Shown here: one piece after another, positions 33,456 to 37,542 of the stretch
How positions within the stretch are numbered: the stretch's first letter is position 1
How the letters are laid out: every line of letters begins with the position of its first letter
DNA from: a phage
Sequence record: PX915676.1
Length of the DNA: 64,000 bases
Reading direction: 5' to 3' (one strand)
Notes under the pieces: generated by a model
What the model was told of the DNA's origin: nothing
The model's database searches: none
What the model saw: only the letters and a program-made list of their open reading frames with translations
Made by a program: the position numbers and the translations under genes

Positions 33456-34112
33456 ATGAATGAACAACTACAAGCAACATTAATCGAAGCTATGGGAAGT
33501 GATCGTAGCGTAGTAAACGCAGCTCGAGTTTCCTTTGGCGTAACCCGTGAAGGTGATTTAAATGAACGTGATGAACGTCTCATCAACTTCCTCGCACGGG
33601 AAAAACACTGTACCCCATTCCGACACCCGCAAGTCAGCTTCCGATGCAAAGCACCTATTGCAATTGCGAGACAGCTGGGCAAGCATCAGGTTGGATTCTC
33701 GTGGAACGAAATGTCCCGGCGGTATAAAGATGGAGCAGTTGAAGTCTTCATCCCTAAAGAGATTTTTGCGAGACCTTCGGACCTCCATGCAGGTTCAGGG
33801 ATTCAACTCATCGACGGAGAGCGAGCTGAAGCATTAATGCTGATTAACGATGCATATGAAGCTTCTCTAGCAGCATATGACAAGTTGATTGAATTTATTG
33901 CACCAGAGCAAGCTCGATTTGTTCTTCCTCAGGGGATGATCACTGAGTGGGTGTGGACCGGTTCTTTGTATGGCTGGTTTGAGTTGTGTCGTCAGCGACT
34001 CTCCTCTCACGCTCAATATGAAGTTCGAGTGTTTGCTAAATCTGTAGACGAAGAGATGGCTAAGATCTACCCAATCTCGTGGGCAGCCCTGAAGAAAACT
34101 TTGGAGAGTTAA
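33456..34112 (+). CDS. thyX: flavin-dependent thymidylate synthase ThyX (variant motif)
   Basis: AARVSF, TPFRHPQVSFRCKAPIAIARQ, SWNEMSRRY and SHAQYEV match ThyX blocks; canonical RHR triad reads KHQ here. Confidence 0.8.
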   Translation: MNEQLQATLIEAMGSDRSVVNAARVSFGVTREGDLNERDERLINFLAREKHCTPFRHPQVSFRCKAPIAIARQLGKHQVGFSWNEMSRRYKDGAVEVFIPKEIFARPSDLHAGSGIQLIDGERAEALMLINDAYEASLAAYDKLIEFIAPEQARFVLPQGMITEWVWTGSLYGWFELCRQRLSSHAQYEVRVFAKSVDEEMAKIYPISWAALKKTLES

Positions 34113-35178: not shown

Positions 35179-35360
35179 AGTGCTCTAAATGTGAAGGAAC
35201 AAACCTTCATTTAAGTAACAAGGTTATCAGAGAGCTTGCTAAAGGCTCTCCAACCAAAGGGAAGAACAAACGATTTACTAACGTCAGGGTTTATACAGCA
35301 ATCTGTAAAGACTGCTTAACTACTGAGTGTCATTACGAAGAAATTGGAGAGCGTAAATGA
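35163..35360 (+). CDS. small zinc-ribbon protein
   Basis: Track ORF; CSKC...CKDC. Confidence 0.5.
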   Translation: MDIVVKCSKCEGTNLHLSNKVIRELAKGSPTKGKNKRFTNVRVYTAICKDCLTTECHYEEIGERK

Positions 35361-36094
35361 GTCGTCGTCAATCACGGAAAGAATCACGGAAAGACCTTCG
35401 TCGGGAAGCACTTGTTACTCGTAAAGGTAAGCGAGAGTATGAAGAGGTTATTTTAGCAAAGCCTGTAGTCCCTCAGAACCAGTTTCAGTCTGAGCTACTC
35501 AATGCTATTAAGACTAAACAAGTTGTGTTCACAGACGCTCCTGCGGGCTGTGGTAAGACCTTTGTAATCACTTCCACGGTTATCGATGCACTGAAGAGTG
35601 GTAAGATTCAGAAGATCATTCTGAGTCGCCCTTCGGTTGGCATGGGAAACTCTCTTGGGTTACTTCCGGGAGGAATGCGTGAGAAGTTTGAACCTTACCT
35701 GATGCCTATCATTGATGTTATTACTCAGCGATATGGTAAGGGATTCTATGAATGCCAAATCGGAAATGGTAACATTGAATTTGTACCTCTGGAATATCTC
35801 CGTGGTCGTTCTTTCAATGATGCTATTGTTATTGTTGATGAGTTCCAGAACACCACTAAAGATGAAGCCTTCTCGATCATGACTCGATTGGGAGAAACCT
35901 CTCAGCTGTTCTGCATGGGCGATACTAACCAGCATGATATGCGTGGTCGTGAGAGTGGTCTTACTTGGGCTACTAACTTTATTGATGAACATGATCTGTA
36001 TGAGTTTGCTGAGATTGTAGATGGTGAATCAGATGATATTGTTCGTTCTGGTTTCTGTAAGGCGATTGTTAAAGCAATGGAAAAGAAAGCTTAA
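35357..36094 (+). CDS. phoH: PhoH-like ATPase
   Basis: Walker A DAPAGCGKTF and Walker B VIVDEFQN as in PhoH family. Confidence 0.85.
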   Translation: MSRRQSRKESRKDLRREALVTRKGKREYEEVILAKPVVPQNQFQSELLNAIKTKQVVFTDAPAGCGKTFVITSTVIDALKSGKIQKIILSRPSVGMGNSLGLLPGGMREKFEPYLMPIIDVITQRYGKGFYECQIGNGNIEFVPLEYLRGRSFNDAIVIVDEFQNTTKDEAFSIMTRLGETSQLFCMGDTNQHDMRGRESGLTWATNFIDEHDLYEFAEIVDGESDDIVRSGFCKAIVKAMEKKA

Positions 36095-36105
36095 ACAGTA
36101 ACTTA

Positions 36106-36114
36106 TAATGTATA
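36106..36114 (+). promoter_or_regulatory. TAATGTATA motif (candidate phage sigma-dependent promoter element)
   Basis: Exact 9-mer about 37 nt upstream of ATG 36151; same 9-mer at 43133 (+) and 52851-52859 (-), each upstream of a gene start. Confidence 0.45.
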
Positions 36115-36150
36115 CTCCTTAGTGTACACTGATATATTAAGGAGTTTTAA

Positions 36151-36465
36151 ATGGCAGATCATGTAGGAAAGAGAGATTATGCACAAGAAAGACGTACCGC
36201 AATTGCCCGTGGTGAGACAGGCGTTGGGAGCAAGAGCGGAGATGCTCAGCGCCACCGTGCACGTCGCATCGTTGAAAAGCGCGATGGAAAAGCTGCTGTC
36301 AGAGGTAAAGATGTTGGACACAAACGAGCTGTCAAGTCTGGAGGCTCTAATGCGTCAAGCAACTTACGTGTTGAATCAGTCAGCTCAAACCGTTCAAACG
36401 GCGGCAAAAGTGGTGATCGAGCTGGAAAAGCAGCTGGAGCACGCAAAGGAGCTTTAAGCTCATAA
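36151..36465 (+). CDS. highly basic Gly/Ser/Lys/Arg-rich protein
   Basis: Track ORF; AAGGAG SD; G-first/T-third codon periodicity favours this frame over overlapping ORF 36179-36457. Confidence 0.5.
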   Translation: MADHVGKRDYAQERRTAIARGETGVGSKSGDAQRHRARRIVEKRDGKAAVRGKDVGHKRAVKSGGSNASSNLRVESVSSNRSNGGKSGDRAGKAAGARKGALSS

Positions 36466-36475
36466 AGAGGTTATA

Positions 36476-36769
36476 GTGTCAGCAGAAACAAAAAGATGTA
36501 CAATTCACACTTATTGTAAATTCTGTAAAGCAGAGGGTGTAAAAAGAGTTGCAACTTTAATGACCAAGTATTCTCCAAGTAGAGGATATAGGGACCACTA
36601 TAAGCACTACTCTTGTAGTGATCACTCCCATCTATTAGAAGATACAGACCCGAATAGAACAAGGAGAGAGCATAACATCGACCTGAGAGCCACTCTCAAG
36701 GAAATGAAAAACAACTCTCGAAACAATCATTACACTGAAGCTGACTATCAAACTTGGCTTCGTCTATAG
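36476..36769 (+). CDS. hypothetical Cys/His-rich protein
   Basis: Track ORF; GTG start with AGAGG SD. Confidence 0.5.
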   Translation: MSAETKRCTIHTYCKFCKAEGVKRVATLMTKYSPSRGYRDHYKHYSCSDHSHLLEDTDPNRTRREHNIDLRATLKEMKNNSRNNHYTEADYQTWLRL

Positions 36770-36775
36770 AACAAA

Positions 36776-36804
36776 GGCTGCCTAATCGGGTGGCCTTTTC
36801 TTTT
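36776..36804 (+). terminator. intrinsic terminator
   Basis: GGCTGCC-TAATCG-GGTGGCC hairpin + TTTTCTTTT. Confidence 0.7.
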
Positions 36805-36839
36805 ATATAAACCAAATTAAAACTTCTTAGGTAATAAAT

Positions 36840-37094
36840 ATGTCTATTGTAAAAATCGTAAATATTTTTGATGTAACCAGAGATGGCAAGATTGTTAAGT
36901 GGACTTTCACTAACCACCACAACAAATCAAACAAGATCATCGAACGGATGATTGAGATTAACCCAAAAACAGCTCGCACTAATGTAATCCTTCGTGGTGC
37001 TGATGGTAAATTCATTTCTTATAAAAACAAAGACGTAGAAAAATCTTTCCGTGTTGCAGTAGAAAATCTCATCCCATTCCCTAAAGGAGTTTAA
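36840..37094 (+). CDS. hypothetical protein, paralog pair member 1
   Basis: Track ORF; C-terminal KTARTNVILRGADGKFISY...PFPKG shared with next ORF. Confidence 0.55.
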   Translation: MSIVKIVNIFDVTRDGKIVKWTFTNHHNKSNKIIERMIEINPKTARTNVILRGADGKFISYKNKDVEKSFRVAVENLIPFPKGV

Positions 37095-37095
37095 T

Positions 37096-37380
37096 ATGAA
37101 TAAGTTAGCTATGGTTCAAATTCGGGACACATACCCTAACCGCCCGGAGCAGAAACCGCGTACTTGGTCTTATCTGTTGGCTGAAAGTAAGACTATTGAC
37201 AAATACGCTGTAGGGGTTGATGCTATTCCAACTAGTATCACATTGCTCCCTCACAAAACAGCCAGAACCCATGTGATGTTACGTGATAGCAAAGGTAAGT
37301 TTATCTCTTATCGTGATTCACGAATCAATAATGAGATTAAATCTGCTATGGAATTTTTGATGCCATTCCCAAAAGGTTGA
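37096..37380 (+). CDS. hypothetical protein, paralog pair member 2
   Basis: Track ORF; KTARTHVMLRDSKGKFISY...PFPKG. Confidence 0.55.
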   Translation: MNKLAMVQIRDTYPNRPEQKPRTWSYLLAESKTIDKYAVGVDAIPTSITLLPHKTARTHVMLRDSKGKFISYRDSRINNEIKSAMEFLMPFPKG

Positions 37381-37383
37381 GTA

Positions 37384-37542
37384 ATGAAAGAATATATTTA
37401 CGTAGGACAGCGCTGGTTCGGTGATGAATGGGAAGGTGGTTACAGCGTTGTGAAAGCTTTTAAGTCTGAAGAAGATGCCAAGTCATGGGTCTTAAAAGAT
37501 GACGTCGGTGAGAGAACTTACATTGAAGTAGAGGTGGAGTAG
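37384..37542 (+). CDS. small ORF (52 aa)
   Basis: ATG with AAAGG SD; below track cut-off. Confidence 0.4.
   Translation: MKEYIYVGQRWFGDEWEGGYSVVKAFKSEEDAKSWVLKDDVGERTYIEVEVE

Follow-up and report, generated by a model that had tools for sequence, protein, structure and literature searches.

We examined a stretch of 64,000 nucleotides from the phage sequence record PX915676.1 (hereafter the window, meaning that whole stretch) and focused on a small, basic gene, ORF1, and on an open reading frame (ORF) of 92 codons, ORF2, that lies inside it in the +1 frame. Our analysis indicates that ORF2 is very probably a genuine overprinted gene (we put the probability at about 0.78): a younger, faster-evolving, lineage-restricted frame under selection, laid over the older frame of ORF1. 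Dual coding is supported by clade-wide avoidance of stop codons, by conservation of the ORF2 start and stop, by position-specific conservation of wobble bases, and by the conservative, amphipathic evolution of the ORF2 protein; by these computational tests, selection is shown to act on both frames. The window derives from a Kuravirus coliphage (phiEco32-like, Gordonclarkvirinae) that is ~99% identical to vB_EcoP_DE5 and Ec3-ASingh over positions 35300-37400. The locus, flanked by PhoH, DNA polymerase and small ORFs, belongs to the module for replication and nucleotide metabolism. Coordinates are collected in Table 1.

The initial annotation had described two almost completely overlapping ORFs at this locus, and the ORF listing of the window returns both exactly. 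ORF2 begins 28 nt downstream of the ORF1 start, which places it in the +1 frame, and ends 8 nt before the ORF1 stop, so that it covers 88% of the length of ORF1. The two products are as different as had been reported from the letters alone: ORF1 is very basic and rich in G, S, K and R (pI 11.5), whereas ORF2, with a pI of 6.8, is close to neutral and helical in the AlphaFold2 (AF2) prediction. Codon periodicity had been said to favor the ORF1 frame, and this is borne out. ORF1 matches the family phrog_4590 (E 7.4e-41, residues 4-101 aligned to profile positions 2-99 of 100) and is the homologue of phiEco32 gp58 and SU10 gp56. With tblastn we found ORF1 homologues in 262 phage records from several families, including phages of Pseudomonas (Bruynoghevirus), Aeromonas, Vibrio and Proteus as well as Salmonella 7-11 and Cronobacter GAP52, and a protein search recovered at least 200 clusters with an ORF1 homologue. 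In 20 distinct Gordonclarkvirinae sequences, variable columns fall at ORF1 codon positions 1, 2 and 3 in the numbers 27/16/60, and the ratio of nonsynonymous to synonymous change (dN/dS) is ~0.2. Judged by these comparisons, ORF1 is the primary, ancient frame; consistent with this, its homologue is among the few coding sequences (CDSs) common to all five C3-morphotype phages compared in the SU10 paper (PMC4281155). For ORF2, the initial annotation stated only that dual coding could not be excluded; the comparative evidence goes further and positively supports it.

To the Gordonclarkvirinae we added relatives of intermediate divergence from metagenome assemblies, whose ORF1 is 62-88% identical to that of the window, and 123 more loci, yielding 135 distinct ORF1 genes. 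A phylogenetic cluster, clade A, comprises all Gordonclarkvirinae together with loci L039, L040, L042, L044, L045, L049, L092, L102 and L103. Many other lineages of the same family form the sister clade, clade C, which served as a control; L046 and L107 also fall outside clade A. ORF2 is open, with the same ATG and the same TAA, in all Gordonclarkvirinae sequences examined and in nine deeper lineages. Its length in clade A is 92 codons, with 88 in L049 and 94-95 where ORF1 carries an insertion. The start codon is created where a Tyr codon of ORF1 meets the next codon, and the required combination, TAT followed by a codon starting with G, is present in 12/12 clade-A representatives with an intact ORF2 (the product of the local probabilities of TAT given Tyr is 2.8e-3). 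The residue after Tyr10 is A, E or D in clade A and mostly K elsewhere. At the other end, Leu102 is encoded by TTA or CTA and followed by A in 11/11 representatives that share the C-terminus, for which the product of the local probabilities of NTA given Leu is 6.5e-6.

We next consider the codons between these ends. Expected numbers of +1 stops were computed by exact dynamic programming, with the ORF1 protein held fixed and codons drawn from the usage of the flanking genes at the same locus; stops were counted in an 84-codon core. Across 13 lineage representatives of clade A, 31.3 stops are expected and only 4 are observed (P 1e-9), all of them in L043; with a conservative set of seven representatives, the numbers are 17.0 and 4 (P 2e-4). 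The null is well calibrated, with 2790 stops observed in the flanking genes of all loci compared to 2753.5 expected. In the control clade C, as in L046 and L107, +1 stops occur at about the expected rate (67 observed, 72.3 expected in clade C). A second test does not depend on the codon usage of individual genes: in clade A, none of the 98 sites at which an NTA codon would precede A or G and create a +1 stop has one (0/98), compared with 11/25 in harmless contexts (P 3e-9). In clade C, the two contexts do not differ (0.41 vs 0.37).

The initial annotation had proposed that stops in one of the two frames among relatives would argue against dual coding. Such stops do exist in the +1 frame: there are 2-7 in Grimontviridae-type relatives and 3-4 in the 84-codon core of L043, L046 and L107. 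Taken literally this would count against ORF2, yet the criterion is too blunt, given that the stops occur only outside the ORF2 clade or in L043, as fits an overprinted gene restricted to certain lineages. L043 lies inside clade A and keeps ORF1 but has 4-6 stops in the +1 frame (6 over the whole of ORF1), and its sequence indicates that it has evidently lost ORF2.

The wobble position of ORF1 is the second codon position of ORF2, and it is under constraint. The INDEPENDENCE of lineages was judged from neighboring genes. In deep pairs, wobble identity is 0.494 in the N-terminal part of the DNA polymerase gene and 0.645 in ORF1 for the same genome pairs, in which amino-acid identity is about equal (0.76 and 0.74, respectively). 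The proportion of synonymous differences (pS) in the adjacent PhoH gene is 0.58 within Gordonclarkvirinae. The constraint on ORF1 is specific to particular positions: wobble identity is 1.00 at H35, I40, V41, R73, S76, S87, A91, K99 and L102, but 0.20-0.35 at T16, A17, G21, G24, G46, G88 and R90. These values show nearly randomized neutral sites alongside certain wobble sites that are kept. The corresponding columns of clade C are free to vary (e.g. H35 0.49, V41 0.37, R73 0.43). Within Gordonclarkvirinae, pS along ORF1 is 0.66-0.72 in codons 1-25, drops to 0.06 in codons 26-50, and rises to ~0.3 in codons 51-75 and 0.4-0.5 from codon 76 to the end. The low segment includes a run of 44 nt that is invariant; here the best-conserved portions of the two frames, KSGDAQRHRARRIVE in ORF1 and EMLSATVHVASLK in ORF2, lie over each other.

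We also asked whether the ORF2 protein is better conserved than ORF1 alone would make it. In the null, synonymous codons were resampled independently in each lineage, either conditioned on an open frame or with +1 stop codons skipped; the two versions give similar results, and the values below are from the second unless stated otherwise. These tests of purifying selection are resampling nulls with clade and gene controls rather than a formal phylogenetic codon model. The mean pairwise identity of ORF2 is 0.457, compared to 0.297 +/- 0.008 in the null (z 19), and the BLOSUM62 score per site is 1.70 compared to 0.55; for deep pairs only, with the open-frame version, the identity is 0.426 compared to 0.291. 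Where codons differ only in the ORF1 wobble base, the replacements that this causes in ORF2 are more conservative than expected by chance (-0.88 vs -1.21, z 5.2), and the transition fraction of these differences is unchanged (0.487 vs 0.493). Clade C shows no bias toward conservative replacements (z -1.6). In 11/11 lineages, ORF2 has a larger helical hydrophobic moment than null peptides matched in composition (mean z 2.2, with P <= 0.01 in six), and Pro and Gly are depleted, with 2 in the ORF2 of the window compared to 6.2 +/- 2.1.

Consistent with this periodicity, AF2 run on the single ORF2 sequence predicts a two-helix hairpin (helices 9-44 and 51-91, pLDDT 83.9, pTM 0.65). Over the first ~16 residues the sequence varies freely, and most of this part is predicted to be disordered; the protein has no Cys, signal peptide or lipobox. 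In searches of 5.8 + 1.8 billion proteins (word-indexed and full HMMER), we recovered only three called copies of ORF2, in clusters P0121, P0122 and P0124. A further hit, P0123, is a 2817-aa tandem-repeat protein that we treated as spurious, because its E-value is inflated by seven repeated weak stretches. Against Pfam and PHROG, ORF2 gave only sub-threshold helical-repeat noise, and Foldseek against viral models returned only generic helical hairpins (E > 0.1). The 14/14 annotated Escherichia-phage feature tables that we inspected list ORF1 only, no inspected Escherichia or Shigella record annotates ORF2, and we found no mention of an overlapping gene at this locus in the literature searched. 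The proteomics of SU10 searched predicted CDSs only (PMC4281155). Predicted tryptic peptides of ORF2 include AEMLSATVHVASLK, MLDTNELSSLEALMR and QATYVLNQSAQTVQTAAK.

Several observations weigh against ORF2 being a gene. In the window sequence alone, an open frame of this length is not significant: 7.2% of synonymous resamples of ORF1 contain 96 or more consecutive codons without a stop (P 0.07). ORF2 diverges faster than ORF1, with 67-73% identity where ORF1 has 85-90%, and within Gordonclarkvirinae the most variable class of nucleotides is the second codon position of ORF2. Its first ~16 codons show no synonymous constraint, with the high pS noted above for that end of ORF1, and its Shine-Dalgarno (SD) sequence is weak and poorly conserved among lineages. 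The neutral sites used for comparison are near, not at, saturation (0.49 vs ~0.43 expected from codon usage), and the P-values treat lineages as independent, with three of the representatives being Gordonclarkvirinae. ORF2 is dispensable at least in L043, which keeps ORF1 without it. No ORF2 homologue of known function was detected in Pfam, PHROG, protein or fold searches, and AF2 readily gives high confidence to any amphipathic helix.

Many of these observations could be explained if ORF2 were a non-functional by-product of the composition of ORF1, whose G, K, R, A and S codons, read in the +1 frame, resemble an A/E/K/L-rich helix. This was indeed our first hypothesis, based on the P value of 0.07, the 27/16/60 pattern, the more rapid loss of identity in ORF2 and the stops found in Grimontviridae homologues. 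ORF1 is poor in V, I, L and M, so few +1 stops are possible in it; resampling with the codon usage of the window gives a mean of 2.76 compared to 2 observed. The window has other +1 ATG-ORFs nested inside genes, of 114, 91, 85 and 80 codons, and annotators of the inspected Escherichia and Shigella records call ORF1 only. We dropped this hypothesis because metagenomic relatives of intermediate divergence keep ORF2 intact, a finding followed by the calibrated tests. A by-product leaves unexplained the identical start and stop and the open frame in ~10 near-saturated lineages, the absence of NTA codons from risky contexts, the wobble conservation that is absent from the sister clades and from the neighboring polymerase gene, and the conservative replacements and excess amphipathicity of the protein. 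A true chance ORF behaves differently: the 91-codon ORF nested in ThyX, which served as a negative control, already carries 5-7 stops in Kuravirus relatives, decaying at once, and is therefore a chance ORF. We consider the by-product explanation strongly disfavored. One shortcut, the use of tblastn coverage as a proxy for an open frame, was rejected: 99/99 records reach at least 80% coverage of ORF2, but two control nested ORFs also show near-full coverage, and one of them is demonstrably broken by stops.

Another explanation is that the constraint comes from a clade-specific element in the nucleic acid itself, for instance a structured RNA, a site for regulation or replication, or a target for recombination or a homing endonuclease. 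The invariant 44-nt run and the pS of 0.06 in ORF1 codons 26-50 would fit such an element, as would the location in a replication module and the homing-type genes that adjoin ORF1 in Bas86, Bas89, EC.W2-6, SGF2, L038 and L043. An RNA structure behind the 44-mer is unsupported: RNAalifold found no conserved or covarying structure (-4.35 kcal/mol, with a covariation term of +0.27), and the folding energy of the transcript is ordinary (single-sequence z -0.84). The constrained wobble sites are spread along the whole of ORF2 rather than gathered in one block. Moreover, such an element would not bar stops over 92 codons or keep an ATG and a TAA at the two ends, nor would it yield conservative ORF2 replacements or amphipathic periodicity. 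We regard this explanation as very unlikely.

The initial annotation credited both ORFs with a good SD sequence. This stands for ORF1, whose canonical AAGGAG is kept in most relatives, but was generous for ORF2, which is preceded by a weak purine tract, GGAAAGAGAG, with GGA at -13 to -11 and a GAGAG that ends 3 nt before the ATG. GGA or AAGG at about -12 to -16 and/or AGAGA at -8 to -4 are found in many clade-A lineages, though not in all. Upstream of both ORFs we found a motif, TAATGTATA, which matches the tAATGTATAtA motif that lies 6-8 nt upstream of the gp36-dependent middle and late transcript starts of phiEco32 (PMC4281155). In SU10, a promoter was placed between CDS56, the ORF1 homologue, and CDS57, which encodes PhoH (PMC4281155). 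Going by this match, TAATGTATA is probably that promoter and would drive a transcript for both ORFs; since it fits the gp36-type motif, the two ORFs are probably middle genes served by a promoter of their own. A scan within ORF1 found no sigma-70 promoter or terminator.

The +1 frame could instead be translated by programmed frameshifting, yielding a fusion of the ORF1 N-terminus to the ORF2 C-terminus with the internal ATG unused. The weak SD, the unconstrained first ~16 codons and the one ribosomal slippage described elsewhere in these genomes (PMC4281155) would fit this idea, as would a group of Pseudomonas-phage relatives, clade B (Bruynoghevirus-like loci L007-L013, L037, L067, L069, L131, L150 and L154; e.g. 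L037:1514-1783), in which the +1 frame is depleted of stops without a conserved start codon. In nine lineages of clade B, the +1 frame of the ORF1 homologue has 1 stop compared to 24.1 expected, and NTG codons occur at 0/17 sites before A and 38/111 elsewhere. The wobble bases are barely conserved (0.436 vs 0.382). The C-terminal end of the +1 peptide is hydrophobic and transmembrane-like, and in phage Ka1 it is annotated (Ka1_36) as a 'putative membrane protein'. Either a further overprinted gene or a product of frameshifting could account for this open frame. In clade A, on the other hand, the ATG is kept in every lineage with an intact ORF2 (P ~3e-3), and the change after Tyr10 from K to A, E or D is exactly what makes it. 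There is no stop between the ATG and codon 25, a stretch that would go untranslated under a shift further downstream, and we noticed no obvious slippery heptamer, although no systematic search was made. Given the weak SD and the situation in clade B, frameshifting stays on the list as a minor rival, one to which we give very little weight.

Taken together, the data suggest how the overlap may have arisen. ORF1 would be the ancestral gene, encoding a small, very basic HNH-motif protein that is widespread in phage replication modules. In an ancestor of Gordonclarkvirinae and some related uncultured phages, its +1 frame would have been overprinted by ORF2, whose product, 92 aa long and roughly neutral, is predicted to fold as an antiparallel two-helix hairpin. 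One middle-phase transcript from the TAATGTATA promoter may then serve for both proteins, with initiation of ORF1 at ATG 36151 through the strong AAGGAG and independent initiation of ORF2 at ATG 36179 through the weak purine-rich SD, ending at TAA 36455-36457. That ORF2 has its own initiation site is suggested by the conservation of its ATG.

What ORF2 does is a matter of speculation; our guess is that it mediates protein-protein interaction and may be a partner, or a modulator, of the basic ORF1 protein with which it would be co-expressed. Such a partnership would not be obligatory, because ORF1 homologues exist without ORF2; those of clade C and L043 show that ORF1 does not generally need it. 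A bolder idea, which we think rather improbable, is that de novo overprinting of an HNH-motif gene gave rise to ORF2 and that ORF2 acts on the product of that very gene, for example as a stoichiometric helical partner or inhibitor, so that a nuclease-like protein and its modulator share the same nucleotides. Part of the same idea is that the ORF1 family, also overprinted or otherwise recruited in its +1 frame in the Pseudomonas-phage clade, is a recurrent platform for the birth of overlapping genes. Nuclease toxins and their immunity proteins, such as colicin E7-Im7, pyocin S2-ImS2 and Rhs-CT/RhsI, offer a parallel by pure analogy: a basic HNH-type protein co-encoded, and presumably co-expressed, with a small helical, non-basic protein of ~90 aa. 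ORF2 has no similarity to immunity proteins in sequence or specific fold.

The textbook case of a fully nested gene pair in a double-stranded DNA (dsDNA) phage is the embedded spanin pair Rz/Rz1 of lambda and many other phages. Like Rz1, ORF2 is a short gene nested in the +1 frame on the same strand, with a transcript that would be shared and selection on both frames. ORF1 and ORF2 are not a spanin pair: ORF2 has no Cys, neither protein shows the expected features (ORF1 has no transmembrane segment and ORF2 lacks a signal peptide and lipobox), and the locus is in a replication module between PhoH and DNA polymerase, not in a lysis cassette. In addition, ORF2 covers far more of its host gene than Rz1 does of Rz. 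Precedents for overprinting include B within A, E within D and K in phiX174, the L gene of MS2, and the general model of de novo gene birth, and overprinted genes have reportedly been found in E. coli as well. ORF1 and ORF2 resemble those of small phages and RNA viruses in that a wide, old frame is paired with a young, restricted and faster frame and that synonymous variation is lowered in the old one. They differ in that the host is a 77-kb dsDNA podovirus under no obvious pressure on genome size, that the overprinted gene has an HNH motif, and that ORF2 is known from sequence alone.

The HNH assignment of ORF1 derives from a degenerate motif. In an alignment of 38 homologues, the N-terminal half, RxYxxERxxAxxRGETGxGSxSGDAxRHRARR, is conserved, and H57, N71 and N80 of an HNH-like (D/G)H...N...N motif are invariant. 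Weak matches to Pfam PF01844 occur in 21/38 relatives (best E 5e-4) and to PF13392 in 7/38; ORF1 of the window itself has no match to the Pfam HNH models at E <= 1 and is below the PF01844 gathering threshold. The AF2 model (pLDDT 67) contains a beta-beta-alpha unit (strands 53-57 and 72-76, helix 77-81, pLDDT ~77). When the model was compared with PDB folds, the top 17 hits were all HNH-type nucleases, as were 20 of the 23 listed, though all at a non-significant E of 1.9-9. The predicted beta-hairpin and helix superpose on the cores of McrA, pyocin S2, colicin E7 and Cas8-HNH, with deviations of 0.7-2.3 A over 25-45 residues. No match was found when PDB sequences were searched with a profile of ORF1. 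We therefore call ORF1 an HNH-motif protein, with a predicted degenerate HNH (beta-beta-alpha-metal) motif and putative nuclease activity. It shares with the HNH families PF01844 and PF13392 the motif and the predicted beta-hairpin-helix core, but unlike HNH endonucleases it lacks zinc-binding cysteines, and its conserved N-terminal half has no known counterpart among them. It is hydrophilic (GRAVY -1.08).

The residue before the putative catalytic His (36316-36321, ORF1 residues 56-57) is Gly (DVGH) in Gordonclarkvirinae, in place of the Asp (VDH) that almost every other member of the family has; ORF2 is affected by this G/D change as well, giving Asp47 vs Thr. Deposited labels for ORF1 homologues or adjoining ORFs vary: 'PhoH-like' for the homologue in XT18, 'Cas8 protein' for the Ptacy1532 CDS under the ORF2 match, and, for the homologue or an adjoining ORF, 'CRISPR-associated endonuclease Cas9/Csn1 family' in Pag-Yong1 and 'NHN endonuclease Cas9-like' in Ka1. 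We guess that the Cas8 and Cas9 labels probably stem from the shared HNH motif. Two IMG/VR contigs of ~90 kb, L076 and L078, have an ORF1 homologue that reads MPSSPGYV and then a stop, cutting it at codon 9; these are pseudogenes or frameshifted copies, or else the assembly is wrong, and both were left out of the analyses.

Fully nested overlaps on the same strand have rarely been demonstrated in large dsDNA phages beyond the spanins, and annotation pipelines are built to discard them. This stretch of DNA is carried by about 100 deposited genomes of the Kuravirus type, several of them candidates for phage therapy, and recoding, 'codon-optimizing' or deleting gp58-like genes would unknowingly alter the second protein. 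As a case of overprinting this one is clean, with a wide old frame, a defined clade carrying the new frame, a loss in L043 and sister clades as controls. Mutations that are silent in ORF1 and disrupt ORF2 are possible.

Table 1 Features of the ORF1/ORF2 locus and other nested ORFs in the window.
Feature	Position	Strand	Description
TAATGTATA motif	36106..36114	+	37 nt upstream of the ORF1 ATG; probable gp36-type phage-sigma middle promoter
ORF1 SD, AAGGAG	36139..36144	+	Canonical; 6 nt 5' of the ATG
ORF1	36151..36465	+	ATG; 104 aa, basic, HNH-like motif; phrog_4590; CDS in inspected GenBank relatives
Purine-rich tract GGAAAGAGAG	36166..36175	+	Weak SD-like element 5' of the ORF2 ATG; putative function
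ORF2 start junction	36178..36181	+	ORF1 Tyr10 TAT + G of next codon gives ATG 36179-36181
ORF2	36179..36457	+	ATG; 92 codons, nested in the ORF1 +1 frame; predicted helical hairpin
Invariant 44-nt run	36232..36275	+	Identical in 20 distinct Gordonclarkvirinae sequences
ORF2 stop, TAA	36455..36457	+	ORF1 Leu102 TTA + A of next codon
Nested +1 ATG-ORF	18134-18478		114 codons, inside a 399-aa gene
Nested +1 ATG-ORF	33562-33837		91 codons, inside ThyX

The surroundings of ORF1 vary among phages. In several lineages, free-standing HNH or Endonuclease VII homing-type genes directly adjoin the ORF1 homologue on its upstream or downstream side (L029:216-596 in Bas86, L027:958-1452 in Bas89, L043:1830-2321, L038:1841-2248, EC.W2-6 and SGF2), and some of them overlap its ends; the locus appears to be a hotspot for homing-endonuclease insertion. 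Directly downstream of ORF1 in the window is a 97-aa Cys/His-rich ORF (36476-36769) that matches phrog_9585 (E 5.5e-46), followed by a strong terminator-like stem-loop at 36773-36798. Among the Kuravirus relatives that we fetched, only a subset has this ORF (SU10, ES17 and myPSH1131), and it has the look of an accessory gene inserted after ORF1, ahead of the next conserved gene. In DE5, a gene ~0.4 kb downstream carries the label 'Autotransporter adhesin'.

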